DNA from: Fibrobacterales bacterium
GTDB taxonomy: Bacteria > Fibrobacterota > Fibrobacteria > Fibrobacterales > JAOPTW01
Assembly (NCBI GenBank): GCA_051532055.1
Contig: JAOPTX010000038.1
Span: 1-64,000 of the forward strand
Direction of reading: 5' to 3'
Length of the DNA: 64,000 bases
The notes under the pieces were generated by a model. That model was not told where the DNA came from. It made no database searches and was given only the letters and a program-made list of their open reading frames with translations. This document shows, piece by piece, positions 7,983 through 63,509 of this stretch (within the stretch, counting starts at the first letter, position 1; each line of letters starts with the position of its first letter). Made by a program: the position numbers and the translations under genes.

Positions 7983-10900
7983 TTAATTTTGCCCAGTTCT
8001 AATATAGCCAAAACGGTCTCTTCTCACTTTACGAGGAGTTGCCCCACTCGGGTAATGTATTGAGTATTCAAAAATGGAGAGGTAGACACCATTACCTACT
8101 AATCTTCCATCTTCAGAAACAGGGTCCCAGCCAATCCATAGCCAACGATCGACATCAGGATTTGTACAGTCACCATCAAATATCTTATCGGTGCACTCAA
8201 TCATTTTGCGATTCTGAGCGACAAATTCACCTAAGTTACTATAGATTGTCATGCGGTATGAAAAGCTCAGGTGGTCTTTTATTTCATCATCCGGTATTGA
8301 TTTAAATGCCTTTTTATCGATACTTCCTTGAATAATATTCCACCAATTACCTTGAACCAAAATACCGACTTGTTGGTACTTTTTTGAGGTTTCAAGGGCG
8401 AGTGCTTTTGTTGTTTGACCGATACTATCATTTATTATTGTTCTCGCATAAAAAGCAGAACCATTGTTTTGCTCGAAATTATCGAGTTTTTCTTGACCAC
8501 TCACATACTCTTGATAAGGATTAATACCCGCCTCAGGCTCCATTCGTCCTTTGATGACAACCCATGGTGCATTATCTCCTGGGGAATTACCGTGAGCATC
8601 AATGACATAGCGCGTATTAGATCTTAAACGTATTGAGTCAGCAGGGGTAAGACGAAAGGTGTTTGAAGACTTATCGAGATATGTGAGAGTTTGATCTTTT
8701 TGGCTCCAGTCAGAGTCCTCTGCTTCAAGAATAGTAGTAGTCCCCGCTGTGTTACTTTCAGAATCTTTATGTTTAAAAAAGTAATTCTCTCGACCTTTGT
8801 TGATCATATCTTTTGTTTCAACTTCTTCTGAAAAACTTAAGAAGAGTGAATCAATAGGAGCTCCGGTTTTACTGTCCTTCGCGGCGCCTTTAACGAGAAG
8901 GGCGCTTTTAATAACGGGGGACATTTTATCTTCCATGTTTATTGTATCGGTTTTAGTAGTGATTTTAATGTCAGTAGTGTCGAAAGTTGATATTACTATT
9001 GTTTCAACGATAGTATCAAGACTTTCACTGATAAGTGTACGTTCTTGTTCTTTTGTGATAGTGTCGATAATGTAATTAGTGTCAATATTGAAAACTGTAG
9101 CAGTAGAAAATTCCTCATCATAGATGTAGGTCATATATGGTTTTATGTTTAATGATGCCGGGACATTCCAATACATTCGGTATGGGTCTTCTGGGTCTGG
9201 GGTCCAGTCTGAAGAGGTGGGGTGAAGTTCAATAACAGAATTTTCTTTATTTATCCATTGGAAGAGCACATCATTGCCACCAAACTCAGCACTGACTATT
9301 GGCCAACTGTACACAAGACTTATGCGGTCCATGATGCCGTCTTCATTCATATCTAAAAAGTAATGTCCGTATCGGCGTGGAATATTCTCAATAGATATTT
9401 CTTCTACTGGTACTTTAATGTTTGGGTCGCCAGGAATATTTCCCTGTCTATCTTGGAGCCCTGAAAGAGGGTACAGTGAAATACTGTCGCCTTCCACAAT
9501 CGTAAATTGGGAAACATCAATAGTGAAATCCCATATTTCACTTCTTTGGTTATCGATGACAGAAGATACTTGGACAATAGAATCGTTTATGATAAATACC
9601 CAATCTTCAGCCCTGACATTTTCAACAGGTTCACTAAATGTGACGGTCAAGGTGTCTTCTCCATGGCCATCTTCTAATAAAGGATCTTTTTTAATAACCG
9701 TGTGAATAATAACGGGGCCTATCATGTCATCCAGTTCACGCTGACTTTCAAAGCGTTTGCCTCCTTTTTCATAAAAGAATGCATCGGCATAACCACCAAT
9801 ATTGGTAAAATAGCCCGCGTTGGCATAGGTGAAATTTCGAGTAATAACAAGAGTGCTATCTCCAGGAGTGAGTGTGCTCCAGTCGTCAGGAGTGAAGGTT
9901 GTTGATTGACAATCATCATCAGATTTCCCGATGCAAAGAGTAATCTCCTCTGGCTCACCTTGCCAGTTGCCAATAGAGATTACAACACTATCAGCCCAGC
10001 CGTCACTTACAGAGTTAAGCTTGGCTTCTTTAATGTAAGTACCATTATCATAAATTTCTGCAAGTTTGATGTAAGGCCCATCGACTTCGGTAAATGTTAT
10101 TGAAGGGGTGAGAACTGATTGCTCATTGCCTTGATTGGTACCTGTACCATCATAGATTACGGTTAATTTAAGATCATCAATTGAGAGGACGTCGTTATCT
10201 GGTGTTATTTCAAACGAGAATATTCCGTTACTGTATGATTTCTTATAATCTTTAAGTTCAATGGAATTGTTAGGGAGAGATATGGCGTAGGAGTCATCAC
10301 ACTCTGTACATATAAATTCGGTACCATCTGACGTTTTATCCATGATGATTGTGTAGAGTCTCACAGACTCATTAGTAGGAAGAGTGTATGAAGAATCGAT
10401 TGGATTGCCTTCTGAATCAGTAAAAACAATCGAGTAGGGTGGGTATTTGGGGGCAATAAACGCAACAGAATCTAATTGAGGTTTACTCGAAGTTGATGAG
10501 ATGCTCTCATGAATAATGTAGTAGGTACTATCCGCTTTAAGGCCATTGATTTTAGGGACATCTAGAGTGAATTGAAAACCATTCATGTCAATAGATATAC
10601 CTTGATAGTATGTACTTCCTTTTTCTAATTCTTCATCAGTTACATCAACTACTCCATCTCTACTTAAGTAAAACTTTGAAATTTTTGAAATGATAGTACT
10701 TTGTGCCTGGCAGCCATTAGTGGGTTCTTCACCATCTGTTATAGTATACTGAGTACTCGATTTTGTATGACCGTATTTGATAGGTTGATCAAAATCGATA
10801 TCTGTTTGTATCTGAATATTTGATTGTAAAGTATGTCGCTCACAATAGAAAAGGTCAAAGGTGTGGCGTGAGCCAATAGTGTTTGTTCCCTCGCCTGCAA

Positions 10901-11939
10901 GAAACTCATCGAGGCTGAGAGTATCGCTTACCGGTTCGTGAGTACCTCCGATATCAAGAGCAAGAGTACTGTCGACAAAAATCCAGAGGTCGTCATCACC
11001 ATTGAAGATAAACTGTTGCCCTGCGCGATACGTGAATGAAGTCTGGGTTTTCATACAGAAATGATAATTGTGCTGGTAACCTTTTGTAGAATCGACTGCG
11101 TAAGGCTCATTCCATTTCGAACTATAGGCAGAGCCTATGCGGTTTTTATTGTTTATAAAATCATCAAGAGGGAAAAATCCGGTATTGGGGACAAGTGGGT
11201 CAGTTGCGTAGTGAGTATCCCCTGTGTCGAGCACTTCGGTAAATGATGAAAATTCATAATTTCCTGTTACTGTATTAGGTTGCATTTGGATATCTTGACA
11301 ATTATAGTTTGATGAATCGGCGAGAGGCTTGAACCAATCGGTAAGTTTTGATGTCCTACATTCAGCCGCTCTTGGCGAAGCCGCATTAGCCATAGGAAGC
11401 CCTTCACTATTGAGAGATGCTCCAACAAGTCCGATTACTGCACCATTTGCAGTGTTTGTAGTACAGCCCATATTAGGGAATTGAAAAGCACTATCGAGAT
11501 CGTACTCATTCCAGTCAATGAACTCGCCAGGAAGAACAGACTTCAGGCAGTAGCCAGTTGTAGATGGTGTTGGTCGAGTGCTTTGAAAGTCGTAAAAAGA
11601 TTCTGACTTAAAATAGAGGTAGAGGGTGTCTTCAAAGAGAAATTGCTGCTGTCCATCCGTTAGGTAGTCAGTCTTTCCTTTGCCTGATTTTCCATATGTT
11701 TCATCAAACTTATTAGATAAATAAAAGTTTGAAAGTGTAGATGTGGTGCCGGTGTAGCTATACCAACCACATTGAGTTGTATCGGGCTCCATCGCAATAC
11801 TGATACCACTGATCACAATTTGTGGCTGAGTATTACTCCAGGGTGAAAAGAGGACTATTGTCTTGTCGTTTGCAGCAAATGCAACGGTAGATATTGCCGA
11901 CATTAAAATGAGGGCACGAGTAAAAAATGAGTGTACCAT
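7983..11939 (-). CDS. Secreted fibro-slime (PA14-like) domain protein with Ig-like repeats and Fibrobacter-type C-terminal domain
   Basis: Signal peptide; GFFPLD...HNYHFCM...FNGDDDLWIFVD..LALDIGGTH...FYCERHT..SN fibro-slime signature; C-terminal IYSNLGEFVA...WDPVSEDGRLVGNGVYL. Confidence 0.88.
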   Translation of the reverse strand: MVHSFFTRALILMSAISTVAFAANDKTIVLFSPWSNTQPQIVISGISIAMEPDTTQCGWYSYTGTTSTLSNFYLSNKFDETYGKSGKGKTDYLTDGQQQFLFEDTLYLYFKSESFYDFQSTRPTPSTTGYCLKSVLPGEFIDWNEYDLDSAFQFPNMGCTTNTANGAVIGLVGASLNSEGLPMANAASPRAAECRTSKLTDWFKPLADSSNYNCQDIQMQPNTVTGNYEFSSFTEVLDTGDTHYATDPLVPNTGFFPLDDFINNKNRIGSAYSSKWNEPYAVDSTKGYQHNYHFCMKTQTSFTYRAGQQFIFNGDDDLWIFVDSTLALDIGGTHEPVSDTLSLDEFLAGEGTNTIGSRHTFDLFYCERHTLQSNIQIQTDIDFDQPIKYGHTKSSTQYTITDGEEPTNGCQAQSTIISKISKFYLSRDGVVDVTDEELEKGSTYYQGISIDMNGFQFTLDVPKINGLKADSTYYIIHESISSTSSKPQLDSVAFIAPKYPPYSIVFTDSEGNPIDSSYTLPTNESVRLYTIIMDKTSDGTEFICTECDDSYAISLPNNSIELKDYKKSYSNGIFSFEITPDNDVLSIDDLKLTVIYDGTGTNQGNEQSVLTPSITFTEVDGPYIKLAEIYDNGTYIKEAKLNSVSDGWADSVVISIGNWQGEPEEITLCIGKSDDDCQSTTFTPDDWSTLTPGDSTLVITRNFTYANAGYFTNIGGYADAFFYEKGGKRFESQRELDDMIGPVIIHTVIKKDPLLEDGHGEDTLTVTFSEPVENVRAEDWVFIINDSIVQVSSVIDNQRSEIWDFTIDVSQFTIVEGDSISLYPLSGLQDRQGNIPGDPNIKVPVEEISIENIPRRYGHYFLDMNEDGIMDRISLVYSWPIVSAEFGGNDVLFQWINKENSVIELHPTSSDWTPDPEDPYRMYWNVPASLNIKPYMTYIYDEEFSTATVFNIDTNYIIDTITKEQERTLISESLDTIVETIVISTFDTTDIKITTKTDTINMEDKMSPVIKSALLVKGAAKDSKTGAPIDSLFLSFSEEVETKDMINKGRENYFFKHKDSESNTAGTTTILEAEDSDWSQKDQTLTYLDKSSNTFRLTPADSIRLRSNTRYVIDAHGNSPGDNAPWVVIKGRMEPEAGINPYQEYVSGQEKLDNFEQNNGSAFYARTIINDSIGQTTKALALETSKKYQQVGILVQGNWWNIIQGSIDKKAFKSIPDDEIKDHLSFSYRMTIYSNLGEFVAQNRKMIECTDKIFDGDCTNPDVDRWLWIGWDPVSEDGRLVGNGVYLSIFEYSIHYPSGATPRKVRRDRFGYIRTGQN

Positions 11940-14476: not shown

Positions 14477-14477
14477 T

Positions 14478-15070: not shown

Positions 15071-16720
15071 ATGCAGCATCAATTGCCTCATGTACAGTCA
15101 GTTCGAAAGAAGCAAAGAGAGATTTTCTCTATTTGGGTGTTACGCCGTTTTCTTGTTTGTATAGTTTTCTATTTTCTTGTTGTTCTCATGGGGTGTAGTC
15201 AAGTTGAACGCTCCAATCCATTAGATTCAAAAGGCAAAGAAAATACCCCTGATGGTATAGTTGAGGAGAGTCATGAGAGTTCTGAGTCTCAATTGCCATC
15301 CTCAGAAGATGAAGTTATTTTTGTAGAGCCAATGAGTTCATCTCAGACCAGTTCGTCTTCAACGACAAGTACAAATGAATCATCAGAAGGACGGACAAGT
15401 TCTTCTTCAAGTAGTGAGCCTATTACCATCCCAGTCATCGAGCCATTCACTATTGCCCAAGGCAATGATTTAAATGTGATTATGGATGAGGGTAACGAGG
15501 GGTCTGACCTCTTTTTTAAATTGAATGCAATAAATAGCATCGGTGAAAAAATTAATTGGGGCGTTGCAGATAAACCTTTGGTAGGTGTTGTCAATATTGA
15601 TAAGGTTGGCCATGAAATAGCGGTTAGTTATCAGGTTCCTGCTTATTATAATGGTATTGAATCATTTTTAATTGTTGCAGAGAGTGGTGTTGAAAAAGAT
15701 ACTATTGAAATAAGTGTTACAGTAAGTGCAAAAAACACCCCGCCACAGTTTACAAAAAAAGCCTCAATTACTGGTATTGACAGTGTAAGAAAGACGCTTT
15801 CTGTTTCTGCAGCTGAGTGTGTTGATACTCTTGATGGTGGCGGTACAGTTGTTCCTACATATAGCTGGTATAGAAGCGTTGAAGATGTAGCCTTGAGTGA
15901 TGGAGTTCTCGTTGCTCTTTCAACGGAATATACATTGATAGCTGAAGATAAAGGTCACTATATGTATGTTATAACGAGCTGTGAAGATACTGAGGGTGAA
16001 GCGGTGCATGACACTACAAGGACCTCGAATAGTATAGCGGTTTTTAGGCCCCCATTTCCAGGTAATGCCATGGAATTTAATGGTTCTAATCAATATGTGG
16101 TAATTGATACGATCAAGCCTGTTCTTACAAAGGGCCTCACTTTTGAGCTTTGGGTTAATTGGCACTCCATAGAGCCATGGTCTCGGCTTATTGAAATTAC
16201 GAATGCAGAAGGGGTAGCTTTTAATAATATTTACTTGGCAGCAGGACCTACTGTGGGTGAGCTTAGATTTGATATTTTTAGTGGGAATTGGCTTGATTCT
16301 ACAAAGCATTGTTACGCACATAATTTTATAGAGTTGAATAAATGGATCCATGTAGCTGCATCAGTCGATGCCAATGGGTATGCTCAAATTTATAAAAATG
16401 GTGTAAGGGTTAAAGAGTGCTTTACTCAACCACCGGTTAATACTGATCGTGCGGTAAATTTTATTGGCAAGTCAAATTCTGAGAATGACCCACTGTTTCG
16501 TGGAGCTATGGATGAAGTTCGGATTTGGGGTGATGTTCGAACAACAGATGAGATACTATACTACAAGGATAACCCGCTGGAAGGTGATGAAGAACATCTA
16601 ATACTCTATTATGATTTCTTTGATTATGGCGATGGTAAGTTGACTGACCTTTCCGGCTCTGTTCATGGCACCTATGTTAATATGGTTACCGGTATTGACA
16701 GTGTAGAATCGTTCAGATAG
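15071..16720 (+). CDS. Modular surface lipoprotein 1: Ser linker, tandem-95/Big_9-like Ig, disulfide Ig, LamG
   Basis: Lipobox VLMGC, YQVPAYYNGIESF, C-x-D...YSWY...C Ig module, LamG (AMEFNGSNQYV, NKWIHVA, FRGAMDEVRIW). Confidence 0.82.
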   Translation: MQHQLPHVQSVRKKQREIFSIWVLRRFLVCIVFYFLVVLMGCSQVERSNPLDSKGKENTPDGIVEESHESSESQLPSSEDEVIFVEPMSSSQTSSSSTTSTNESSEGRTSSSSSSEPITIPVIEPFTIAQGNDLNVIMDEGNEGSDLFFKLNAINSIGEKINWGVADKPLVGVVNIDKVGHEIAVSYQVPAYYNGIESFLIVAESGVEKDTIEISVTVSAKNTPPQFTKKASITGIDSVRKTLSVSAAECVDTLDGGGTVVPTYSWYRSVEDVALSDGVLVALSTEYTLIAEDKGHYMYVITSCEDTEGEAVHDTTRTSNSIAVFRPPFPGNAMEFNGSNQYVVIDTIKPVLTKGLTFELWVNWHSIEPWSRLIEITNAEGVAFNNIYLAAGPTVGELRFDIFSGNWLDSTKHCYAHNFIELNKWIHVAASVDANGYAQIYKNGVRVKECFTQPPVNTDRAVNFIGKSNSENDPLFRGAMDEVRIWGDVRTTDEILYYKDNPLEGDEEHLILYYDFFDYGDGKLTDLSGSVHGTYVNMVTGIDSVESFR

Positions 16721-16728
16721 CACCGAAT

Positions 16729-16996: not shown

Positions 16997-19900
16997 ATGA
17001 CAGTTATGAGAGGGTCGATCGTACATGTGTGTACAGTGCTTATTACGTTAAGCTTGTTTCACTGTGCAGAAAGCTTTCCAGTTGTAGCTGCAGTACCTGA
17101 CTCAAGTGATGCATCAACATCTTCTGCTGATGAAATCTCCTCCTCTGAAAATGTAATTGCGCAAGACCTTGAACATACCATAGAAAGAATGGTTCAACTT
17201 TTTGATCAGCTCGATACTTTTGAGCACGTGTATCGTGAAAATTTTGCAACTGATACGAGTATGTCTCTAGAAAAAGAAGCTCTCTTATTACAAATAAAAA
17301 GCACGATTGATTCTTTAGATGTATACAAGGATAAAGCATGGCTCAATTCTGATTTTCTGAATGGTATATCTATAAATGGTGTTACACGAATTGATGTTGA
17401 GGAGCGGGTTCATTTTGTTTCGTCCTATGTAAGTGTTATCAAGAGCTATGAGTATAAATTGCCAAAATCCGAGGGTGAAGATGTTTTTGAAAAATCAGAT
17501 TTTGATGTAGATCCTAATACTGCTCCTGCAGTTGATGGTAATTATTATCCAATCTTTGAAGCGGGACAAAGTAAAGTAGTATACGCGAATGAAGACGAAG
17601 TGTCTTGGATTAACATAATGGTTACGGAATTAAATGATGATATGCTCGAAATGAGTGTGTTAAAACCATTTTCTAATGCACGTTTAAGCTTTACAAATGA
17701 CCCAAGCAGTGAAAATTTAAAACAGAGTGGCAACCGTTGGGCATATGGGATTGAGTTTGAGCCCACTGAAAATTTTAATGGCCTTGATACCTCAATCATT
17801 CAAATAAGTGATGGCGAGTTGAATGACACCTTGCAACTGATATTTGATATTGCACCTCAGAATGATAACCCTATTTTAAAGGGTATAGCTAATATTAATA
17901 ATGTTCACACTGAAGGTGATACTCTCATTGCTAGTTTAGTGTCTGGTGATTGTATCGATCCAAATGATTCTGGGACTCCACCAGAACTTATTTATGCATG
18001 GTATCGAGATGTTGATAATATTAAAAATAATGGCAATGAAGAACGAACGGATGATTTCAAAGACCAGATTGTATTGCAAGAGAGTGATACTGCTTATTAC
18101 TATTATGTGGTAGCAATCTGTATGGATGGTGAAAGTTTTATCTTGTCGGAAAGAGATACTTCACGGTACACAGACAAAGTTCTTCTTAACGACTATGCAC
18201 CAACATTTGTTGATGGTGACCGCAAATATATTGAAGGCTATGAAGATGCGGTTCACACATTTAAAATAGCCGCTGTAGATGATAAAGATTCAATTGATTG
18301 GTGGCCAGTAAATTCTGAATCAAGCCACGGTAAAGTTGTTGTGAAAAAAGATAAAGGGAATATAGCCCAATTCGAATATGAGCCAAATCCAAATTATTAT
18401 GGTGAAGATGAGTTTGAAATTGTTGCCAAAGGTGGTAAACGATCTGATACGGTTACTGTTATTGTGGAGACATATTCTGTGAATGACGCTCCTCAGGTAG
18501 TATTCACTAAAAAGTCTCCTGATGGAGTTGTTGTAGAAAATGAAGCGTTGACGATTGAGGCTTCATGTTCTGATGTTGATGGTAAGAATGATATTGCTCA
18601 ATTGTCTTATAAATGGTATTCAGAGGCTCATAATTCAGGTTATAATGGGGATGAAGTTGGTAAGGATCAAATTTCTTCTGGTTCAGAAGAAAGTAGTTTG
18701 ACTATTGATAGTAATATGGTTAATGCATACGTATATGCTATTGTTGAATGCCAAGACTTAAATGGTGTGATTGCAGTAGATACATCATATTATTCTGATT
18801 ATATATTTGAAGAAGAAAAGGACTGGGCGGATAATGTTTTGGCATTTGATGGTCAAAAAGATTGGATTGACCTGGGTGATATTACACCTAACTTGAATAA
18901 CGGTATTACACTAGAAGCAATGGTGTATTGGGAAGGTAATACTGGGAAAGATAATATCTTGATGTTGAGCGATGAATCAGGTAAGAATAGAGTTTCTCTT
19001 GGCCGCCATAATCAAGATACGTTAGCCATAACCATTGTTAATGATGAAATCTATACTATAGGCGCAGTGAAAGGGTTTATTAATGACAATCAATGGACGC
19101 ATATAGCGGTAACTATTGAAAGTGGTCAACCGGTTAGAGTTTATAAAAATGGATTTTTAGTTTCTGAATCAGATTTAGGTTTCCCTAATGTCGTTCATTG
19201 GACTAAAAATTCTATTGGTAAAGGTTTTGAAGATAATAATGAGATGTTTAAAGGCAAGATAGATGAAATTAGAGTTTGGGAAGATGTTCGTTCTGCGGAA
19301 GAGATAAGAACTTCGATGTTTTCTGAAATGACTGATCAGGTATCACAACTTTATGCTGCATGGGATTTTAATAATGTTGGCGGAGCCATCCTCTGGAATG
19401 TAAAAAGTATACGTCAAAACGGTATATTAGTTGCAATGGATAATAGTAATTGGCTTAAGACAATGAAAAAAATTGATCTTAAAATTTATTCTAATTATAG
19501 TGCAGTTTTGGATACCATGAATGTTACCATTGCTGAGAATATGTTGTTTCCATTGTCGTATACTCCATCAAATGGGTTCGAATTTAAATCTTGGGAACTT
19601 GATCAAAGTAATGGAGTTATTACTGATCCGAATCAACAAATTACCTATTTCACTGGAGTTGAAGATGCATTAATTCAATTAAAGTGTAATGATGTCTGGG
19701 CTCCAGACGCGCCAAGTGGAATTCATAGTGAAAGTCATGATGATGGCTCATTTGTGCTAAAATGGAATAAACCTAATGATAATGTGGGAACAGTAGGGTA
19801 TACAATATATAGAGATGGTGAGTGGTATGGAGAAACTAATACTGAGGAGATGTACTTAAATGTCATTGGATCAGGTACTTATACTATAGACGCCTTTGAT

Positions 19901-20332
19901 CTCGAAGGTAGAAAATCTTTAGTAAGTAACCCACTTGTACATTTTGAAGCAGAAGATTGGTTAAGTGGATTAAATATAGTATCTGACACTATTGATGCTG
20001 TTGGGTTGGTAAAGAGCGTTGATGATGCAAAGGTCAGTATTAGGTGGAATGGACAGTTTTTTGATACTGGTGTACCTGCTGGAGAGTATAATATTGCATA
20101 TAGAATTAAGCCACTAAATACAGGTGATGAATTTGAATCTGAAGTACTGTATAAAGGCGAAAAGAAATTGAGTATATCAGGGCAAAGTATTGATGCGGAA
20201 AATGGTTGGACTTATGTAGTGTCTTCCGATTCGTTCGATTTTGATGGTGATCTTAACTCCCCTTTCTTTTTAGATTTTGATCAAAGTGAATTTATGGTAG
20301 ACTGGATTCAAATGCAACCGATCAACAACTAA
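16997..20332 (+). CDS. Modular surface lipoprotein 2: helical N-region, 2x(Big_9-like + disulfide Ig), LamG, B-repeat-like, FN3, CBM6/35-like tip
   Basis: LSLFHC lipobox; FEPTENFNG and YEPNPNYYG repeats; LamG FKGKIDEIRVW; FN3 LKWNKPNDNVGTVGYTIYRDG; tip FEAED...VDWIQM. Confidence 0.82.
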   Translation: MTVMRGSIVHVCTVLITLSLFHCAESFPVVAAVPDSSDASTSSADEISSSENVIAQDLEHTIERMVQLFDQLDTFEHVYRENFATDTSMSLEKEALLLQIKSTIDSLDVYKDKAWLNSDFLNGISINGVTRIDVEERVHFVSSYVSVIKSYEYKLPKSEGEDVFEKSDFDVDPNTAPAVDGNYYPIFEAGQSKVVYANEDEVSWINIMVTELNDDMLEMSVLKPFSNARLSFTNDPSSENLKQSGNRWAYGIEFEPTENFNGLDTSIIQISDGELNDTLQLIFDIAPQNDNPILKGIANINNVHTEGDTLIASLVSGDCIDPNDSGTPPELIYAWYRDVDNIKNNGNEERTDDFKDQIVLQESDTAYYYYVVAICMDGESFILSERDTSRYTDKVLLNDYAPTFVDGDRKYIEGYEDAVHTFKIAAVDDKDSIDWWPVNSESSHGKVVVKKDKGNIAQFEYEPNPNYYGEDEFEIVAKGGKRSDTVTVIVETYSVNDAPQVVFTKKSPDGVVVENEALTIEASCSDVDGKNDIAQLSYKWYSEAHNSGYNGDEVGKDQISSGSEESSLTIDSNMVNAYVYAIVECQDLNGVIAVDTSYYSDYIFEEEKDWADNVLAFDGQKDWIDLGDITPNLNNGITLEAMVYWEGNTGKDNILMLSDESGKNRVSLGRHNQDTLAITIVNDEIYTIGAVKGFINDNQWTHIAVTIESGQPVRVYKNGFLVSESDLGFPNVVHWTKNSIGKGFEDNNEMFKGKIDEIRVWEDVRSAEEIRTSMFSEMTDQVSQLYAAWDFNNVGGAILWNVKSIRQNGILVAMDNSNWLKTMKKIDLKIYSNYSAVLDTMNVTIAENMLFPLSYTPSNGFEFKSWELDQSNGVITDPNQQITYFTGVEDALIQLKCNDVWAPDAPSGIHSESHDDGSFVLKWNKPNDNVGTVGYTIYRDGEWYGETNTEEMYLNVIGSGTYTIDAFDLEGRKSLVSNPLVHFEAEDWLSGLNIVSDTIDAVGLVKSVDDAKVSIRWNGQFFDTGVPAGEYNIAYRIKPLNTGDEFESEVLYKGEKKLSISGQSIDAENGWTYVVSSDSFDFDGDLNSPFFLDFDQSEFMVDWIQMQPINN

Positions 20333-20351
20333 CATTAAAATTTATAATCCT

Positions 20352-20390: not shown

Positions 20391-20536
20391 CTATTCGTAT
20401 TATACTAATATTATTGAGGAATGAGGTTAAAACCCAAATGGCTATTTGAATGGTGTTGGCAGTCGATACTTTTGGATAATAACTTCTATATTTATTTGAG
20501 GTGTTTATAGGGGGACAGGGCAAAAAGAGAGTATAT

Positions 20537-23500
20537 ATGACGAATGTGTTGAGAATATTTTTTTGTATCAATCTGCCTTTACTGGTCCTTTTCTCGAGTT
20601 GTTCAGATACAGTGAATACGCCAGAAATAATTGCAGTAACAGCAAGTAGCTCTGAAGACGAATTTATTAAGAGCGTTACATTGGATTCAATAGATCAATA
20701 TGCTTCAGAAATTTCTTCTTTAATTCAAGAGAAAGAGGCTACAAGTGAGTCCTCACATCAGGATAGCCTTACGAACTTAATTGATTCAAAAATAAATAAA
20801 TTAGAATTGCTTATATTAACTTTTTATGATGCGAGAGAACAAGAGTTTAGTGACGTAGAATATGCAATTGCTATAGCGAAAGCGGAGGGGGTTTCTGAGG
20901 ATGTTAACGTCTCTAATGATCTTCTTGATAGCCTTGTACAGAATCGGGTTGATTCCAAAAATTACATTGAACAGCTAAAAAAAGAATTGGGACTATCAAT
21001 TTCACCAAAGCCTATTATTTTAATATCTAGCTCATCACTATTAGAATCAAGTATTTCAGAAGATGGAGGTATAGCATTATCCGATACCATCTATTATCAA
21101 GCGACGGAAGATTCATTGTATACTTTTACTATTGGACCAACAATTTCTGAAGGGGATACGCTGATTTGGGGTTTTCTTGATGATATTAAAAATGGATTGG
21201 TAGAATTGGAGCCTCGAGTAGACTCTGTAATTATATCATTTAAGGCAAGTCGGAATTATTTTGGACAGGTGTCATTTAGGCTAGAAGTAAGTAATAACGA
21301 TAAGAGTGACACTGTATATGTCGTTGTTCAAGTAGCTCCAATTAATGATATTCCCTCATTTGAAGGGGAAGTATCAATAGCAGGGACTATAATTGAAGGC
21401 CAGAAATTAAAAATTATTACAAAAGCTACTTGTAGTGATCAATCAGATAAGGGGGCACCCACACCAACGTTAATTAACAACTGGTATGGAGATACTGATA
21501 GTATTGGATTTGACGGAGAATTGATTTCTGTTGGACGATCGATGGAGCTATCTGCTGAACATGTGGGATATTATCTTTATGGAGTTGTATTATGTAAAGA
21601 CTACTTCGGTGATATAGTTGCAGATACAACACTTTACACTGATTCAGTAGCGAAATTGAATAGTGCGCCAATAATCGATTCAGGTACAATATTACATGGT
21701 ACTCTTAATGAAGATGATACTATCAGTGGTCTACTTACTGCGATAGACGTAGATGATGATTTAATTCAATGGATGTTAGCTGATAGTACTTCGCATGGCA
21801 CTGTTACGTTTATGGGTACTTTGAATGAAGCAAAGTATAACTATGTGCCTTTTCAACATTATAATGGAGTGGATTCTGCAAAGGTTGTTGCTTTTGCTGG
21901 CATTCATAGTGATACCATTGTATTAGCATTTACTGTAAACCCAATAAATGATTTGCCTTTGATTTATGTAGATTCCGTCATTACAGGGGGGGCTTTATTC
22001 GATAGTGATCTATCAGTTCAAGTAACCTGTACGGATAATATTGATAGCATTCAATCACCTCTAGAAGTAAGGTATCAATGGTTTTCAGACAGAGATACAC
22101 TGAACTATGATGGGGGATTAGTTTCAACTGATTCGGTTTTAACTGTTGTGGACTCACTTGCTCTCAGCTATTTTTATTTGATCACCCAGTGTATTGATGA
22201 GGATAACAGTGTGGTTCAGGATACAAGCCTATATAGCAATCGACTTATCCCTCAAAACTCTTCAGCAACTACACAGAAAACTATGCATTTTGATGGAGTT
22301 GATGACATCATTGATTTAGACCCATTAAACCCTGATGTTGATGATGGCCTAACATTCGAGTTTTTGGTTTTTCTCGACTCATTCCATACTGGTACAGTGT
22401 TAACGCTATCTGAGGATGGGCAAGCGGTTGATTTATCAATTGGCGTTTCTCACGATTCATTAAAGGTTGAAATTGGATCTAATATATTTAGTATACAGGA
22501 ATTTTTCATTGAAGAACACTGGACCCATGTAGCGATATCAGTTGGTTCAGGAGTGGGGAATAATATCCATTTTTATAAAAATGGAATGTTAATTGAGAAG
22601 GGTACCGTTCCAGCCCTTATTACAAATGCATTTGGAGTTTGTAAAATGGGAGCTTCACTACAAAATGTAGATAATTTAAGTGGAACACTTGAAAATGTGA
22701 AAATATGGGAAAGTGTGCGAACCCGAACTGAAATTAAAGACAATATATTTAACGAAAATATTAATCATTCAGATCTATACATTGGGTGGAGTTTTGATAA
22801 TACAAGTACATTTTTTATTCAAAGTACTCAGGGAGAGCACTATGGATCAATGGAGGGAACAAGTGCCACAAGAAGAGATGCTATTAAAAGGAATATTGTG
22901 AGTGTGGTTCCAAATTCAGAAATTACAATAACTATTAATGGTGATACAATAGATGTTGCAACGGACTTTGAACTTGCAGAAACTATGCTATTGAATCTTA
23001 GGGCCTTTCCAGGGATTAGGTATAACTTTGTCCGTTGGATTACTTCAAAGGCATCTGTAATTTTTGAAGGAGGGGGGCAAGGAGATTCTCTGATGAATAC
23101 TGACCTTTCTATAAGTGAAGCTTCTGAATTAAGTGTAGATATAGAACGATATACTCTGGCTGATACTCGAAATAGTGTAACTATGGCTTATCATTATATT
23201 GTTATGGATAGTACAGCTTGGATGGCGGAAAACCTAAAATATTTACCAGAGGTATTTGGTACTGATCAATATTCTGGTATTGAACCACGATTTTATGTGT
23301 ACGGTTATTCTGGTATAGTAGTTGCAAATGCGCTTCTAAATACAAACTATGACAAATATGGCGTATTATATAATTGGAAAGCAGCAAATGATAATGTATG
23401 TCCTTTAGGTTGGAGACTTCCAACTAATGAGGATTGGACAAAGTTACTCGAAGGAGTAAATGATATGTATCCGTCAGAAAATGAAAGTGAAGTGCTCAGA

Positions 23501-23773
23501 GAAAATTGGAGCACCTATTGGGAAAATGACAAGGGAAAGGATTCCATTTTGTTTGGAGCACGCGGTGGAGGCATGTTGTCTGCAGTGGGTACCCCCGCTC
23601 AAGCTCTTTTTGAATACAATAGACAAAAATCCTTTTGGTGGAGTTCGGATGTTGTATTGGGTACTTTAGACTCAGGCTGGTCCTGGGCTCTAAGCGATGT
23701 AAGTACTTCTGTGGAAAATATTCTTCAGGGAAGGGAGGATGCTCTTTCGATTCGTTGTGTACAGGATTTGTAG
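20537..23773 (+). CDS. Modular surface lipoprotein 3: helical N-region, 2x(Big_9-like + disulfide Ig), LamG, Fib_succ_major (FISUMP) tip
   Basis: LFSSC lipobox; LamG HWTHVAI; FISUMP signature WMAENLKY...YGVLYNWKAA..VCPLGWRLPT..DW...FWWSS...SIRCVQD. Confidence 0.85.
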   Translation: MTNVLRIFFCINLPLLVLFSSCSDTVNTPEIIAVTASSSEDEFIKSVTLDSIDQYASEISSLIQEKEATSESSHQDSLTNLIDSKINKLELLILTFYDAREQEFSDVEYAIAIAKAEGVSEDVNVSNDLLDSLVQNRVDSKNYIEQLKKELGLSISPKPIILISSSSLLESSISEDGGIALSDTIYYQATEDSLYTFTIGPTISEGDTLIWGFLDDIKNGLVELEPRVDSVIISFKASRNYFGQVSFRLEVSNNDKSDTVYVVVQVAPINDIPSFEGEVSIAGTIIEGQKLKIITKATCSDQSDKGAPTPTLINNWYGDTDSIGFDGELISVGRSMELSAEHVGYYLYGVVLCKDYFGDIVADTTLYTDSVAKLNSAPIIDSGTILHGTLNEDDTISGLLTAIDVDDDLIQWMLADSTSHGTVTFMGTLNEAKYNYVPFQHYNGVDSAKVVAFAGIHSDTIVLAFTVNPINDLPLIYVDSVITGGALFDSDLSVQVTCTDNIDSIQSPLEVRYQWFSDRDTLNYDGGLVSTDSVLTVVDSLALSYFYLITQCIDEDNSVVQDTSLYSNRLIPQNSSATTQKTMHFDGVDDIIDLDPLNPDVDDGLTFEFLVFLDSFHTGTVLTLSEDGQAVDLSIGVSHDSLKVEIGSNIFSIQEFFIEEHWTHVAISVGSGVGNNIHFYKNGMLIEKGTVPALITNAFGVCKMGASLQNVDNLSGTLENVKIWESVRTRTEIKDNIFNENINHSDLYIGWSFDNTSTFFIQSTQGEHYGSMEGTSATRRDAIKRNIVSVVPNSEITITINGDTIDVATDFELAETMLLNLRAFPGIRYNFVRWITSKASVIFEGGGQGDSLMNTDLSISEASELSVDIERYTLADTRNSVTMAYHYIVMDSTAWMAENLKYLPEVFGTDQYSGIEPRFYVYGYSGIVVANALLNTNYDKYGVLYNWKAANDNVCPLGWRLPTNEDWTKLLEGVNDMYPSENESEVLRENWSTYWENDKGKDSILFGARGGGMLSAVGTPAQALFEYNRQKSFWWSSDVVLGTLDSGWSWALSDVSTSVENILQGREDALSIRCVQDL

Positions 23774-23989: not shown

Positions 23990-26491
23990 ATGGTATCAGT
24001 TTTTCAGATATGCGTTGTTTTGGTATGTATACTCTTGATGTTCTGTTCGCGTACAGAAAACACACTTGGTTTAGATGAGTCCCAAGAAGTGTCGGGTGAG
24101 GTATTAGAGGGAACCGTTGAATCTCTGAAGGATACCATACTTCTTTTAGAAGAGCAAAAGGCTCGCGCTGTAGATTCTTTGGTAATTGCAACATATGATG
24201 TTGAAATAGGTAGAATACAAGAGCAAGTAGTCAATATTACTCGTGCAAAAGCCTATGAAGAAGAAAGCTCACTTTCCATTGCACGATCAAATTATGCTTA
24301 TTTATTGGCACAGGGTGCGACCGGAGATACATTACTTCTGGCTCAAGAGCTTGTTTCTCAACTTGAGTCTCTTTCTGATTCTTTGCAAAGAGAATTAGAA
24401 AGTTTAACGGTAAAGTATGGAGATATAGCTTTAAAAGACCCATCCCATACAATGAGCTCATCCAGTACTACCCCGTCGAGTAGCTTCACGCAGGGAAGTG
24501 TAAATAGCTCTAGTGTAATAGAAGGGGGATCTTCAGGTCAACAACCAGGGATAAGTTTTGCGCCACTCAATACTCCGCCTGTTATCGATCAGGGAGACCA
24601 GGTAGCGGTAACAGTCTCCGAAGATGGTTCTCCAAAAGCATTTGAATTGTTGCTGACAGCCACAGATGTTGAACAGTTTGAGCTTTCATGGGAGGTAGTA
24701 AGTCATCCTTCTTTTGGGGTACTGTCTCTTGAAAAAGATGCAAAACAAGTATTGGTAGACTATCAACCTGCACCTAATCATGCTGGAGTGGTGACATTTG
24801 TAATGACTGTAAGTGATAGTGAATTAAGTGATACCATAACGGTGACAGTGACAATTGAGCCAGAGAATGATAGGCCAATATACTTGGGTGAGGCGATATT
24901 AGTAGGTACAACAGTTGAAAACGAAATACTATCTATTGATCAGGGAGGTGCATGTACCGATAGTGCAGATGGTGGTATTTTGCCTATAGTGTCATATATT
25001 TGGTATAAAGATAGTGATAACTCTGAGTATAATGGTATTGCGCAGGTCTCTTCAAATAAACAGAAACAATTGAGTAATGATGATATTGATTTTTATTTTT
25101 ATGGTATAGTTGCTTGTACGGATACACATGGGGCTGCGGTGTATGATACAACTGATTATAGCGCACAAATTGTTCCTGCACAAGCTGGTACGGGCCCCCG
25201 AGCGTTACAATTTAAAGAGGTGAATGATTTTATTGCTCTTCCGGAAATGACTTTAGAAGTGAGTGACGGGTTTACTTTTGAAGCGTTAGTGTATTGGGAT
25301 AAAAATAGTCCAAATAAAGATGGAACGCTCATGGAATTTTCTGATACGAGCGGATTAAACAAATTAGTACTCAAGCGATCACAGGATAAGATACATTTTG
25401 TCTCATCATTGGGAGCTGGTGCATCTCTATTGAAATCACATAAAGGTTTTGTAGAAGAAGGCCATTGGACTCATGTTGCAGTCACTGTGAAAAATGATGG
25501 AACCGCTACATTATATAAAAATGGATTCGCAGATAAAAGTGAAACGTTTTTAATAATGGCAAATAATGTTTCTCGAACTAAAAATGTTCTTGGGAATAGT
25601 GTAGAAGGAGGGAATGCTCATTTGGGGCTCCTTGATAATGTTCATATATGGGAGAGGGTTCTAACGCCAGCCGAAATACAGCAAAGACTGACACAACAAG
25701 TCCAAGGGACTGAAACTGGCTTAAAGGCCGCATGGAATTTTAACTCAATTTCAGGTAAGACCCTTTATGATATCAGCCTTACCTATAATGGAATAGTGAC
25801 AAACATGACCGATGATCAATGGGTTGAGTCCTATGAGGTTAAGACTGTTACTATTGAAACAACAGGGGGGGGCATTACTAATGTTACAGGAGCTGTTTCA
25901 GTTGCAAAAACAATGAAATTCCCAATTACTATAGAAGCAAATGAGGGATATTTATTGGATCAATGGTCTGTAATCTCAGGAGAGGCAGAAATTGGGGATA
26001 AAACTCAGAATGTAACGTGGGTATCGGCTTCAGAGAATGACGCTGTTATATCGGCCTCCTTTACCCGAGATACCATTCATGTTGAATTCGAAGAAAATTT
26101 TAGTTCACAGCCTGACCCACAGGGGCTGCAGTATGAAGATGCACATGGGTCAGTTGGTTTTATTAATAATTCAGGTCAGCGTCTCTTATTTTCAAGGAAT
26201 TTAGTAGCGGGTAAATATGCTATTCGTGTTCAATATTCTGCCTGGACGTGGGTACCTATGTTTCAACCGAAGAAGGTTCAGTTCGCATTTACTCAGTCAG
26301 GTCAAAATATTGTATTCCCACCCCATCAACAGTGTATGTTAAAAACCAATACTAATAATTATTATAATTGGACCACGAGCGATGACGGGTATCTCATTGT
26401 GAATCAATCTGGTGAGTATATGTTAGTGACAGAATTTTGGCTCGACGATTATAATGTTGATTGGTTTGAACTTATTCCTGTTGATGAATAG
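23990..26491 (+). CDS. Modular surface lipoprotein 4: helical N-region, Big_9-like, disulfide Ig, LamG, B-repeat-like, CBM6/35-like tip
   Basis: LLMFC lipobox, YQPAPNHAG, GHWTHVAVT, GYLLDQW; tip VEFEE...NVDWFELIP. Confidence 0.82.
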   Translation: MVSVFQICVVLVCILLMFCSRTENTLGLDESQEVSGEVLEGTVESLKDTILLLEEQKARAVDSLVIATYDVEIGRIQEQVVNITRAKAYEEESSLSIARSNYAYLLAQGATGDTLLLAQELVSQLESLSDSLQRELESLTVKYGDIALKDPSHTMSSSSTTPSSSFTQGSVNSSSVIEGGSSGQQPGISFAPLNTPPVIDQGDQVAVTVSEDGSPKAFELLLTATDVEQFELSWEVVSHPSFGVLSLEKDAKQVLVDYQPAPNHAGVVTFVMTVSDSELSDTITVTVTIEPENDRPIYLGEAILVGTTVENEILSIDQGGACTDSADGGILPIVSYIWYKDSDNSEYNGIAQVSSNKQKQLSNDDIDFYFYGIVACTDTHGAAVYDTTDYSAQIVPAQAGTGPRALQFKEVNDFIALPEMTLEVSDGFTFEALVYWDKNSPNKDGTLMEFSDTSGLNKLVLKRSQDKIHFVSSLGAGASLLKSHKGFVEEGHWTHVAVTVKNDGTATLYKNGFADKSETFLIMANNVSRTKNVLGNSVEGGNAHLGLLDNVHIWERVLTPAEIQQRLTQQVQGTETGLKAAWNFNSISGKTLYDISLTYNGIVTNMTDDQWVESYEVKTVTIETTGGGITNVTGAVSVAKTMKFPITIEANEGYLLDQWSVISGEAEIGDKTQNVTWVSASENDAVISASFTRDTIHVEFEENFSSQPDPQGLQYEDAHGSVGFINNSGQRLLFSRNLVAGKYAIRVQYSAWTWVPMFQPKKVQFAFTQSGQNIVFPPHQQCMLKTNTNNYYNWTTSDDGYLIVNQSGEYMLVTEFWLDDYNVDWFELIPVDE

Positions 26492-26678
26492 GGTATATTT
26501 ACAGTTTAAGTAATTGTAAATTTTAATACACAGAGTGCTGAAAGGGGCCTGTCCTGATGAGGGTGGGTTGTTATCTTCAACTACACTATTGAAACTCCTG
26601 CTATATAAAATATATTAAGGGCAAACGAGGGCTCGTTTGTTGTAGTTTCCCATAGCTATGGGAATTTTGGAGATAGAA

Positions 26679-28898
26679 ATGCATTGGCATGTTAAAAAAG
26701 TAATAGTATTCATTTGTGTTTTATTGTGTATTGGTTGTGGGTCAAATGATGTTACTGATATACAGGTTGAATCTGTTGCATCTTCTGCGCAGAGTGAAAT
26801 GAGCTCGTCTGGAGTTATACACACTTTTATGGATACTCTAAATGCATTTACAGCGTTACATGATACCGTTATTGCTTTAGACTCTTTGATTTCTGCGGTT
26901 GGGGCGTTAGATTCATTAGTTGAAGTGCGTGAAGAATTTGCAACACGCTTAGTAACTGAAGTGGATGCTTTTTTACAACTACAAGATAGCCTCAAAATAG
27001 TAGGACAAACAGAATTAGATTATCAGATAAATACAGGAGGACCTGCTTTTGACCAGGGGGTGGCCCAAATGATAATAATTAAAGCAGATGAAAAGATTGG
27101 GAAGTTAAGTTGGCTCAATGAGGTAGTTCATGCTGATGGTTTTATCGAGAAATATGGGGCTATTACCATTCCCCCGATTTCAGAAGAGACTACTCAACCT
27201 GAACCAGGATTGAGTAGTGCCCTCCTGCTTTCATCATTAGAATCTACACAATTATCAAGCAGTATTGACCTTTCATCTTCGTCAGTAGATAGTACCCCCA
27301 TCGAAGATAGTATTGTCGGAGATTCAATGGTAAATAACGCCCCACAATTTACTAATGCAGCAGAAGCATTCATTTCAGTAAAACCTGGTTCGGAAATAAT
27401 TATTGATATGCTTGGGAGCGATCTTGATGGAGATTCAATTTGGGGAGTAGCTGTTGAAGGCAATATGCCAAGTCAGGGTACACTGGTATTTGATGATGGT
27501 ATTGGGGTGTTTACCCCTCATATTGGATTTCGAGGAGAAGAGGCTTTTAGCGTGGCATTAAATGATGGGAATGGTGGCATCGCTGAGAAGAATATAGTCG
27601 TATTGATACTTCCTGATCATATACCACAAAATAATGCAATTGTATTTGATGGCCTTGATGATAGAGTTTCACTCCCTTTGACGAGCATAGACTTTTCAAC
27701 TGGAGTAACCATTAACTTATGGGTTAAATGGCCTGATGTTAAGGATTCTGGAACAATCTTTGAGCTGGTAACCATTGACAGTACTCATGTTGGTCTGTAC
27801 AGTGAAGGCTCTAGTAATAAACAAGTACGGCTCGAAATCAATAATTTAAATACCAGCAACGAGTTAATTTCCAATATTGATGCAGTGAGATATGGAGAAT
27901 GGACACATCTATCGGTGATCTTTAATGGTGGTGGAGGCGCGGCTATCTATTGTAATGGACAGCTTTGGGGTTTTAAAGACCTTATAGTGCCTCGTGGTGG
28001 TGAGATTCGATCGTTTTCTATTGGAGGTAGTGTCATCTATTCTGATCAATTTTTTAGTGGGAGTATTGATGAGGTCACTATGTGGAATAGCATTTTAAGT
28101 CAGGAAAGTATTGCTCAATCACAATTTGACACGGTGTCTGAAGCACCATTACTCTATGTGCCTTTTGAAGAAAGTGAACCACTTATATCTGTCAATGAGA
28201 AAATTTCAGACACATATGGCACGTTAGTTAATATGGAAGGTACAGAGTGGACCACGTCTTTTACGGGTCCAGAAACACTCACGGTATCAGCAACGGAATA
28301 TGGTAGTGTTGATAATGCAGGCCTCTATCAGGTAGTTCATGGGCAGGAGAAAACTTTTATAGCAGTTCCCAATGATGATGACTTTTTTGATCAGTGGGTG
28401 GTTGTAAAAGGTTCACTTGTGTTGCCTGATAGTTCTGAGCCGGAAATTACTGTGTCAGTTTCAGAAGCAACCCATATAGAGGCTCGGTTTATTGATTTTA
28501 TCACTGATACCGTTACTATTGAGTTTGAGGAAAATATTGATGAGCAAGCAAATAGGGGTAACCTTACGGTAGCAACAGAATCTGGCGTGACTTATGTTCG
28601 TCCTAGCAATCAGTGGTATACGTTTTACTGGTCAAATGTACCCTTGTTGGTTGGTGAATATAAGGTTGTATGCAGGGCCTCATTGGGGAGCGATTCGGAT
28701 GTTCTGCTTCGTTATGCATATGATGATAAATGGACACCTGATTTCAAAAAAACAGGACTCTATAAGAGTTCTACAGAGTTTCAAGAGTTTGATATTGGCT
28801 CAATTTCTGTAAAAAAGGAGGGATCTGCATCCCTTCAATTAACTGTTGGAAGCCTAAACCTAAACTTGGATTGGTTTAAACTAGTGAAAATGGAGTAG
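26679..28898 (+). CDS. Modular surface lipoprotein 5: helical N-region, Big_9-like, LamG, B-repeat-like, CBM6/35-like tip
   Basis: LCIGC lipobox, FTPHIGFRG, FSGSIDEVTMW, FFDQW; tip IEFEE...NLDWFKLV. ATG at 26679 follows GGAG. Confidence 0.82.
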   Translation: MHWHVKKVIVFICVLLCIGCGSNDVTDIQVESVASSAQSEMSSSGVIHTFMDTLNAFTALHDTVIALDSLISAVGALDSLVEVREEFATRLVTEVDAFLQLQDSLKIVGQTELDYQINTGGPAFDQGVAQMIIIKADEKIGKLSWLNEVVHADGFIEKYGAITIPPISEETTQPEPGLSSALLLSSLESTQLSSSIDLSSSSVDSTPIEDSIVGDSMVNNAPQFTNAAEAFISVKPGSEIIIDMLGSDLDGDSIWGVAVEGNMPSQGTLVFDDGIGVFTPHIGFRGEEAFSVALNDGNGGIAEKNIVVLILPDHIPQNNAIVFDGLDDRVSLPLTSIDFSTGVTINLWVKWPDVKDSGTIFELVTIDSTHVGLYSEGSSNKQVRLEINNLNTSNELISNIDAVRYGEWTHLSVIFNGGGGAAIYCNGQLWGFKDLIVPRGGEIRSFSIGGSVIYSDQFFSGSIDEVTMWNSILSQESIAQSQFDTVSEAPLLYVPFEESEPLISVNEKISDTYGTLVNMEGTEWTTSFTGPETLTVSATEYGSVDNAGLYQVVHGQEKTFIAVPNDDDFFDQWVVVKGSLVLPDSSEPEITVSVSEATHIEARFIDFITDTVTIEFEENIDEQANRGNLTVATESGVTYVRPSNQWYTFYWSNVPLLVGEYKVVCRASLGSDSDVLLRYAYDDKWTPDFKKTGLYKSSTEFQEFDIGSISVKKEGSASLQLTVGSLNLNLDWFKLVKME

Positions 28899-44737: not shown

Positions 44738-44743
44738 GCGAAA

Positions 44744-45394: not shown

Positions 45395-45396
45395 TT

Positions 45397-62390: not shown

Positions 62391-63509
62391 TTATTTGCAG
62401 CAGCGGAAGCCTACGAATTGGTATTGATTTTGAGGGTAAAAACTGTATTTCGCTTCTTGGCAGGTTGAGGCATCTTTACTTGAGTAGTTGCCTCCAGAGA
62501 CGTAGTAGAAGGATGCTCGTTGTTCATGTGGGGTGGATGTCCACTCCCAGATGTTGCCCGACATATCGTAGTGGCCGTAATATGAACGGCAATCTTTTGC
62601 GTGACCGGATCGTTTTGATTTTGTCTCTGTTGTGACACATTGGGCGGGATTGTAGTCTGACCCATAGGGGTAGTCGGTGTTGAGTTTACCAGAGCATGAG
62701 GTTTGCCACTCTTCCTTACTACAGAGGCGTTTGCTTAATGAGCTACAAAGGGCGCTTGCCTCTTTGTGGGAAACAAAAACTTTTGGGGTTTCGTTGAGAG
62801 TATTTGGCCATTCATACAGATCCATGCAGATTGAGGTCCCATCCTTGAGGGGTACGGGAGACATGTTGTTTGGGCAGGGTGGAATCTTTTGTTTAAACTC
62901 ATAACTACGAGTGATGGTGTCGGAATGATTACCTGCTGAGTCAATTGCAAAGAATGTAAGGGTGCTATTGGTTTCAATGCTTAAAGGAGTATTGAAAGAG
63001 GAGTATTGCTCAGTTGTACTATACATAACACTGCACTTTGATTCACTACAGCGAGCTTTAATACTTATGGGTTCATAGTATCGACCGGTGGGTGGGCTCA
63101 CCTGTATTTTTGGGGCTATGGTGGCAGTTACAATACTCTTTTTTTTCAGGGAACGTTGTATTGCCCTTCGTGCCTTCTTGGCGGCGTTTGCTTTGTTTTG
63201 TGCGTTTTGCGCTTTTAGGACAGAATCCTGAAGTTGCCGAGCTTCTTCTTCAGCAATCTGTTGTCGAAGAATAGAGTCTTGTTTGCGGAGGAATGCTATA
63301 GAGTCAAGGAGAGTTTTTTGTTCTTCGAGCTCAGCAAGAAGCTTTTCTTTTGCCAAGAGTGATGCTTCTGCGGCACTTCGAGCTTCTGCCTCCCCTTTCA
63401 TTTGTGCTAGTTTATATTGCCAAAAAATAAGGAGGAGTAAAATGAGTAATATAAGGAGTGGTATAAGAATGCGTTTTTTGGAACGCTTTTTTGAAGATGC
63501 TGTTGTCAT
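62391..63509 (-). CDS. Membrane-anchored protein: coiled coil, Fn3-associated/CHB_HEX_C-like domain, SUMF1/FGE-like C-type lectin-fold domain
   Basis: N-terminal TM; PPTGRY...FFAIDSAGNHS; CMDLYEWPN, KRLC..EEW, YPYG, YDMSGNIWEW, VGFRCC. Confidence 0.82.
   Translation of the reverse strand: MTTASSKKRSKKRILIPLLILLILLLLIFWQYKLAQMKGEAEARSAAEASLLAKEKLLAELEEQKTLLDSIAFLRKQDSILRQQIAEEEARQLQDSVLKAQNAQNKANAAKKARRAIQRSLKKKSIVTATIAPKIQVSPPTGRYYEPISIKARCSESKCSVMYSTTEQYSSFNTPLSIETNSTLTFFAIDSAGNHSDTITRSYEFKQKIPPCPNNMSPVPLKDGTSICMDLYEWPNTLNETPKVFVSHKEASALCSSLSKRLCSKEEWQTSCSGKLNTDYPYGSDYNPAQCVTTETKSKRSGHAKDCRSYYGHYDMSGNIWEWTSTPHEQRASFYYVSGGNYSSKDASTCQEAKYSFYPQNQYQFVGFRCCK

Follow-up and report, generated by a model that had tools for sequence, protein, structure and literature searches.

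The DNA analysed here, the window, is a stretch of 64,000 nucleotides (positions 1 to 64,000 of contig JAOPTX010000038.1, assembly GCA_051532055.1) from a Fibrobacterales bacterium of the phylum Fibrobacterota. In our numbering it is G000:C38:1-64000, G000 being the source genome (5.17 Mb, 181 contigs, 94% complete). The window encodes exported proteins, many of them lipoproteins, that are rich in D-(S/T)-(A/I/L/V/M/T), the sequon which directs general O-glycosylation of extracytoplasmic proteins in Bacteroidota. An earlier note on this DNA had proposed that the same sequon-directed system operates in Fibrobacterota. We report that the motif is specific for Asp, for the residue at +1 and for exported proteins, that it is under selection, and that two loci encoding glycosyltransferases of the GT-C fold are conserved. 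A further Bacteroidota-type O-glycosylation system is therefore probable in Fibrobacterota.

Exported proteins of the window

The hand counts of the earlier note were reproduced exactly for all proteins, each of which was compared with 2000 whole-protein shuffles (Table 1). The open reading frame (ORF) at 20501-23773 encodes 1090 aa; the 1078 aa given previously (20537-23773) correspond to a later ATG start. Taken together, the 20 predicted exported proteins of the window hold 143 full motifs against 49.3 expected and the 16 cytoplasmic proteins 15 against 13.1. The control motif E-[ST]-hydrophobic occurs 30 times in the exported set against 46.9 expected. The cytoplasmic enzymes SerS, QueA, Acs and a radical SAM protein carry 0, 0, 2 and 1 sequons (total 3 against 6.6 expected), as the note had stated. 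For the full motif the window (2.9-fold) is richer than the genome (1.9-fold). Seven of the ten sequons of the TonB-dependent receptor lie at residues 45-160, in an N-terminal extension ahead of the plug (198-290), and the helical stalk of the FGE-sulfatase-like protein presents DSI, DSI and DSV at residues 69, 78 and 95. Strong enrichment in exported proteins, as had been claimed, holds for the class and not for every member: the exported protein at 49110-52415 has 4 sequons against 3.8 expected. [quoted passage not shown]

Table 1. Sequon-bearing proteins of the window and candidate genes; sequon counts are given against the shuffle mean
Feature	Position	Strand	Evidence
Lipoprotein, Big_9/tandem-95 + LamG + FISUMP domains; putative substrate	20501..23773	+	26 sequons vs 6.4, 0/2000 shuffles reach this
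Lipoprotein with Big_9 domain; putative substrate	29950..31602	+	16 sequons vs 3.3, 0/2000
Fibro-slime domain protein with signal peptide; putative substrate	7983..11939	-	20 sequons vs 7.4, 0/2000
Lipoprotein, Big_9 + LamG + InlB B-repeat; putative substrate	26658..28898	+	12 sequons vs 3.6
TonB-dependent receptor	36889..39483	+	10 sequons vs 2.9, 4/2000
Lipoprotein adjoining TonB receptor, no Pfam match	39493..41346	+	12 sequons vs 2.2
FGE-sulfatase-like protein, N-terminally anchored	62391..63509	-	5 sequons vs 0.8, 1/2000
Predicted lipoprotein	15071..16720	+	7 sequons vs 2.0 from composition
Predicted exported protein	16997..20332	+	9 sequons vs 5.3 from composition
Predicted exported protein	23990..26491	+	8 sequons vs 3.6 from composition
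GtrA-family gene	5076..5522	-	PF04138, E 8e-19
YfhO-like GT-C, ~820 aa, ~10 membrane helices	G000:C56:12769-15252
TMEM260-like GT117, 963 aa	G000:C12:4578-7469		PF11028, 182 bits vs cut-off 24.2
Dolichol-phosphate-mannose-synthase-like GT2, 239 aa	G000:C12:2920-3639		best match dolichol monophosphate mannose synthase 5mlz, E 1.9e-26

At 15071-31602 (+) paralogous exported proteins, mostly lipoproteins, follow one another; they combine helical N-termini with Big_9/tandem-95 repeats and with LamG and FISUMP domains (Pfam was run on three of them). The window carries both the fibro-slime domain TIGR02148 and the FISUMP domain TIGR02145. At 36889-46467 (+) the TonB-dependent receptor is followed by a lipoprotein, a coiled-coil protein, two ExbB/MotA-like genes, and ExbD-like, TonB-like and TPR genes; Pfam supports the receptor plug, the remaining labels being read from sequence.

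Motif specificity and conservation

For the genome-wide test 3741 genes of G000, called by a hexamer-scored ORF caller, were sorted by a localisation heuristic, membrane and ambiguous classes were excluded, repeats were masked and residues were shuffled within 24-residue windows. The 1248 exported proteins contain 3780 D[ST][ILVT] against 1866 expected (2.03-fold, bootstrap 1.88-2.16), the 1782 cytoplasmic proteins 1715 against 1362 (1.26-fold, 95% interval 1.19-1.34). The corresponding values for the full motif are 4263 against 2283 (1.87) and 2113 against 1715 (1.23). The strong exported enrichment thus stands, and the earlier wording that it is found in exported proteins only is slightly too strong; the cytoplasmic excess arises in part because the heuristic misfiles some exported proteins. 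The enrichment survives the composition-shuffled controls and the comparison with E-[ST]-x and D-[ST]-polar motifs. E[ST][ILVT] reaches 0.90 in exported and 1.12 in cytoplasmic proteins, and there is no appreciable enrichment of D[ST]polar (0.78-0.80), of reversed motifs (0.90-0.98) or of D[GANKQ]-hydrophobic (1.09-1.12). At +1 the order of enrichment is L (2.8-3.1) > I (1.9-2.4) > V, T (1.3-1.9) > A, M (0.7-1.3). A similar order, L, I, V, T, A, S, M, is given for the glycoproteome in the accessible text of PMC12871550; in G000 A and M are near 1.0. Moreover, 20 different Asp-Ser/Thr codon pairs encode the sequons, so that the excess is not a DNA repeat.

Conservation was followed in 20 stretches of G238, a genome of the same genus, together with locus L032 (225 orthologue pairs retained from 260 genes). 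Among 66 exported pairs (80% identical) the sequon Ser/Thr is kept at 269 of 296 sites, compared with 1287 of 1583 sites without Asp (p 2.5e-5, an overstated value since sites in one protein are not independent). Ser/Thr is kept at 59 of 79 sites after Glu and at 96 of 129 ahead of a polar residue, and the sequon Asp itself at 265 of 296 sites against 456 of 573 in the comparison set. The 110 cytoplasmic pairs reveal no such effect (93/106 vs 1158/1280).

Enrichment is seen in each of the nine relatives sampled (1.8-4.2-fold, with a lower bound exceeding 1 in eight of them), with cytoplasmic sets at 0.90-1.57; these samples are partial (80-800 kb, 8-99 exported proteins each). Small samples are noisy, as seen in G190, in which the first 100 kb give 29 against 29 and 400 kb give 1.99-fold. 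Enrichment at the level of the phylum is already published: Fibrobacterota shows a similar enrichment in a ratio plotted over the bacterial tree (PMC12871550, accessible text). What is added here are controls for selection and fold and a narrowing of the enzyme. We found no site-level glycoproteomics for Fibrobacterota in a literature search that left most subscription papers outside.

Candidate glycosyltransferases

In the pathway that we propose, Sec export would be followed by O-glycosylation of periplasmic, lipoprotein and outer-membrane proteins. As in Bacteroidota, the Ser/Thr of D-(S/T)-(L/I/V/T) would carry the sugar, and such sites would be accumulated and kept by selection. A sugar, probably mannose, may be loaded on undecaprenyl phosphate by the 239-aa GT2 (Table 1) and/or its ArnC-like neighbour. 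A putative LPG_synthase_TM (PF03706) protein may then flip it, and on the periplasmic side a GT-C enzyme would carry out the transfer. For Bacteroidota, the accessible text of PMC12871550 gives mannose as the linking sugar, describes the core flippase, oligosaccharyltransferase (OTase) and ligase as still undiscovered, and reports the LFG locus as not conserved across the phylum. An LFG-type locus (metG, wzx, glycosyltransferases) was not identified here, metG being sought by a single motif look-up without a match.

We favour the YfhO-like protein as the sequon-reading transferase. It is called YfhO-like since its PF09586 score lies below cut-off (20.4 vs 28.5 bits, C-terminal part only); four of eight genomes pass. 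The protein is homologous end to end to YfhO of Parabacteroides distasonis (E 3e-30, 22% identity over 808 columns), and a 91% identical relative is named YfhO family protein. Among 194 genomes with a completeness of 90% or more, 192 have the gene. In G000 a GT2 and a PF03706 gene, with a methyltransferase gene on either side of the pair, come next after it; in G345 and G400 it lies directly upstream of a mannose-synthase-like gene, and in G012 and G043 a paralogue lies in or adjoins the GT117 cluster. The predicted model has a GT-C fold, nearest to AftD and then to STT3 and PglB, and a profile search detected no solved homologue by sequence. YfhO of B. subtilis reportedly glycosylates lipoteichoic acid. 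For Bacteroidota, YfhO has been predicted as the OTase from HHpred, conservation, essentiality and topology (bioRxiv 10.64898/2026.07.27.740950, accessible text).

The best-surviving alternative, which we nevertheless regard as unlikely, is that GT117 initiates by transferring mannose from undecaprenyl-phosphate-mannose to the sequon. The YfhO-like enzyme would then add later sugars or serve another envelope polymer, and the relative G241, which lacks GT117, would have lost the gene recently and carry its sequons as relics. The only PDB sequence match of GT117 is the human protein O-mannosyltransferase TMEM260 (9rql, E 4.9e-13). Human D52, H67, R355 and the catalytic base D441 align to D36, H51, R489 and D576, and an RxxY motif (R321/Y324) is assigned from its spacing, equal to that of human R264/Y267. 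These human residues are described as essential or donor-binding in the accessible text of bioRxiv 10.64898/2026.03.17.711096. All six are kept in 19 of 20 aligned homologues, including three from Bacteroidota, the twentieth being a fragment. In G000 the genes ribBA-ribH-nusB, GT117, an ArnC-like GT2, the 239-aa GT2 and accA follow one another in one direction. The mannose-synthase-like gene, second downstream of GT117, is found at most about 8 kb downstream in 12 of 16 nusB-linked loci. Mannose as the linking sugar of Bacteroidota is a further point in favour of GT117. Of the 296 genomes of the phylum 289 carry PF11028 (170 of the 172 high-quality ones), as does one of 14 control genomes, that of B. 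thetaiotaomicron; this tally and that of the YfhO-like gene each include the unpublished genome G253 as one row, and we make no claim on it alone. The closest named relative of GT117, 84% identical, is from a Fibrobacterales bacterium. The GT117 model (pLDDT, the predicted local distance difference test, 93.8) has a GT-C fold with PglB, STT3 and AglB as top matches; TMEM260 was absent from the fold-search results. In one locus (L039) the GT117 cluster also holds GT4, PF03706 flippase-like, RmlD-like and further GT2 genes. The RmlD-like gene and the mannose-synthase-like gene would, though only indirectly, hint at a mannose-rhamnose(-glucuronic acid) core like that of Bacteroidota.

It is G241 that tips the balance towards the YfhO-like enzyme. 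In this Fibrobacterota relative (1.6 Mb, single contig, 98% complete) family, protein and profile searches all fail to find GT117, the profile matching TPR regions only, and nusB is followed by an Ig-repeat gene in the place of GT117. Searches for PMT_2, Wzy_C, STT3 and GtrA were likewise negative. G241 keeps the YfhO-like gene, the only one of the GT-C families searched, both GT2s and a PF03706 gene. Yet the 99 exported proteins of the 800 kb read contain 157 motifs against 78 (2.01-fold, 1.63-2.42), with Glu at 1.12 and the cytoplasm at 1.30; the first 400 kb gave 1.79 with Glu at 1.44. Some proteins have 9 motifs in 267 residues, and sequons of G000 are retained at 29 of 90 sites, compared with 18 of 60 in class-mates that possess GT117. 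The hypothesis of GT117 as the sole enzyme, with G241 as its negative control, fails on the enrichment in the 800 kb, and a genome devoid of GT117 that keeps the YfhO-like gene and is still enriched favours YfhO. Further points against GT117 as the initiating enzyme are that G012 (93% complete) has no GT117 match yet is enriched 4.2-fold, that three Bacteroidota GT117 loci have no mannose-synthase neighbour, and that the long IPT-domain signature recognised by human TMEM260 lacks this Asp. If the system exists, we give the YfhO-like protein somewhat better than even odds of being the sequon-reading transferase; GT117 is a possible but less likely reader, and any other enzyme an improbable one. 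A two-step use of the YfhO-like protein and GT117 is compatible with everything but G241, unless its loss is recent. Slightly more doubtful than initiation by GT117 is the broader proposal that the sequon-reading enzyme of the Fibrobacteres-Chlorobi-Bacteroidetes (FCB) group is a bacterial TMEM260 counterpart, fed by the neighbouring polyprenol-phosphate-mannose synthase, with a eukaryote-like O-mannosylation start and YfhO acting later, in both Fibrobacterota and Bacteroidota. We found no paper that proposes such an enzyme, and distant bacterial DUF2723 homologues are only mentioned in the accessible text of PMC10214176.

Other transferases rank low. The earlier suggestion that the GtrA gene of the window might contribute was not borne out; three of ten enriched genomes lack it and it is thus dispensable. 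An STT3/PglB-type enzyme is found in none of the ten genomes. G000 has four Wzy_C/PglL-type genes (C120:987, C7:234016, C25:30452, C24:16612) and three PMT_2-type GT-C genes (C36:90693, C34:58403, C34:61085), both types being ranked low because they are missing from the enriched G241.

Some observations stand apart. In the phylum of G296 (including G297, locus L046, titled Zixiibacteriota) PF11028 occurs in 151 of 151 genomes, most with 2-8 matches. Locus L033 is titled Bifidobacteriales yet has the Fibrobacteria-type gene order, and L045 is titled Ignavibacteria yet its phylum list includes a Zixiibacteriota-titled genome; both titles look wrong. G241 has several long Big_2 repeat proteins, one of them at the place of GT117 in its relatives, and L209:2565-6482 has 15 repeats. 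Membrane glycosyltransferases are greatly expanded in G012, which has 35 PMT_2 GT-C matches where four relatives have 0-3.

Alternatives, significance and known systems

A sequon-directed, Bacteroidota-type system, as proposed in the earlier note, remains the best reading. It has survived the composition, E-[ST]-x, D-[ST]-polar and Ig-fold tests; its GtrA link has failed. We put the overall explanation, glycosylation together with the enzyme proposal, at a probability of roughly 0.75; that exported proteins are glycosylated at the sequon is predicted with slightly greater confidence.

An explanation without glycosylation, which we consider improbable, would have the motif as a sequence habit of beta-rich secreted proteins, structural in origin or peculiar to the lineage, that marks strand starts, helix caps or calcium-binding turns. 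It gains from the excess in the cytoplasmic class, from the unenriched sensor loops described below and from one of four Ig-repeat proteins from outside the FCB group, which taken alone gives D[ST][ILV] 29 against 11.7 (2.48, repeats unmasked). However, these four proteins (Roseobacteraceae, Priestia plasmids) give 45 against 44.9 in their pooled fold-matched segments (1.00), while the homologous Ig/tandem-95 segments of 44 G000 proteins give 191 against 82.0 (2.3-fold); the pooled non-FCB repeats lack the excess. D-[ST]-[FYW], which is typical of non-FCB tandem-95 repeats, is 4.2-fold enriched there and reaches 0.95 in the G000 segments. The excess is also greater in helix-rich stretches (3.09 exported vs 1.39 cytoplasm) than in strand-rich ones (2.18 vs 1.28), neither Glu nor Asn substitutes for Asp, conservation is confined to exported proteins, and 20 codon pairs are in use. 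In an E. coli control of 9 exported proteins only, 13 motifs were found against 12.4; a split by T9SS tail comprised 8 proteins only. Equally improbable is that an extracytoplasmic factor other than a glycosyltransferase reads the motif (another modification, a chaperone, a sorting signal), or that the motif is left over from an ancestral FCB system which has ceased to work here: the statistics reveal selection on a motif and not chemistry, and surface lipoproteins are strongly enriched here whereas Porphyromonas gingivalis avoids glycosylating surface proteins, but motif and +1 order match a proven glycosylation sequon, purifying selection is current within the genus, which speaks against a relic, and there are a lipid-linked sugar synthase and two GT-C enzymes of nearly universal occurrence.

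Several results count against glycosylation at the sequon or against the YfhO-like enzyme as its reader. The localisation heuristic is home-made from hydrophobicity and lipobox, and is not SignalP. In 43 inner-membrane signalling proteins the periplasmic loops show no enrichment (20 against 17.1, 1.17; tails 1.34); in a broader set of 69 two-helix proteins the loops are at 1.95 and the tails at 1.35. Bacteroidales samples, small ones, are not enriched (Parabacteroides 32 against 38, Prevotella 19 against 16), nor is a further Bacteroidota positive control (14 against 24.8); the control stretches are rich in SusC/SusD-type genes, which may account for this, given that surface proteins of P. gingivalis are reported to escape the modification. 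As this phylum has a proven system, there is no one-to-one relation between enrichment and glycosylation. Concerning the enzyme, two of the 194 genomes, G219 (99% complete, 60 contigs) and G041, have no YfhO match even by profile, and AftD, the best fold match, extends glycans, which speaks against an initiating role. YfhO is reported absent from P. gingivalis, an O-glycosylating species, by Pfam cut-off in the accessible text of bioRxiv 10.64898/2026.07.27.740950; this may be a threshold effect, because the copy of G000 itself falls below that cut-off. G241 is one genome, half read: its sequon retention differs from controls (29/90 vs 13/70) with p 0.07 only, its D/E ratio of 1.79 is the lowest of ten genomes, its sequons may be relics of a recent GT117 loss, and its unread half may hold other unrecognised GT-Cs.

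If the sequon-directed system is real, general O-glycosylation would have arisen before Fibrobacterota and Bacteroidota diverged, and fibre-degrading Fibrobacterota would use dense glycoproteins, the fibro-slime proteins and Ig-repeat lipoproteins, at their surface. This would matter for adhesion, for the coverage of proteomes and for producing Fibrobacterota enzymes in other hosts. For the question of the glycan-initiating enzyme of Bacteroidota, our analysis offers two named candidate genes, defined candidate active-site residues and a natural case of gene loss that separates them.

The features of G000 agree with O-glycosylation in Bacteroidota in the three-residue motif, in the use of Asp and not Glu, in the preference for Leu, Ile and Val, which recalls the DS(L/I/V) preference of P. 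intermedia, and in the restriction to exported proteins; moreover, both candidate GT-C families are common to Bacteroidales. They differ in belonging to another phylum, in which the system is predicted from motif statistics and genes, and in the near absence of enrichment for Ala and Met at +1. Surface lipoproteins bear many sites, up to 26 in one protein, whereas P. gingivalis O-glycosylates but its surface proteins are reported to avoid modification. In G000, but in none of the three Bacteroidota loci, GT117 shares its gene run with a gene resembling mannose-phosphate synthases. The YfhO-like protein shares length, membrane helices, GT-C fold and near-universal presence in the phylum with the YfhO family (PF09586), but its gene lies beside GT2, PF03706 flippase-like and methyltransferase genes and not beside sahH/luxS. 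With human TMEM260 (GT117; 9rql; PMC10214176, accessible text) the G000 protein has in common PF11028, the GT-C core, the luminal Rossmann-like part, the C-terminal helical repeats and the donor-binding and catalytic residues; it differs in being bacterial, in its length of 963 aa and in its putative acceptor, the human enzyme serving IPT domains.

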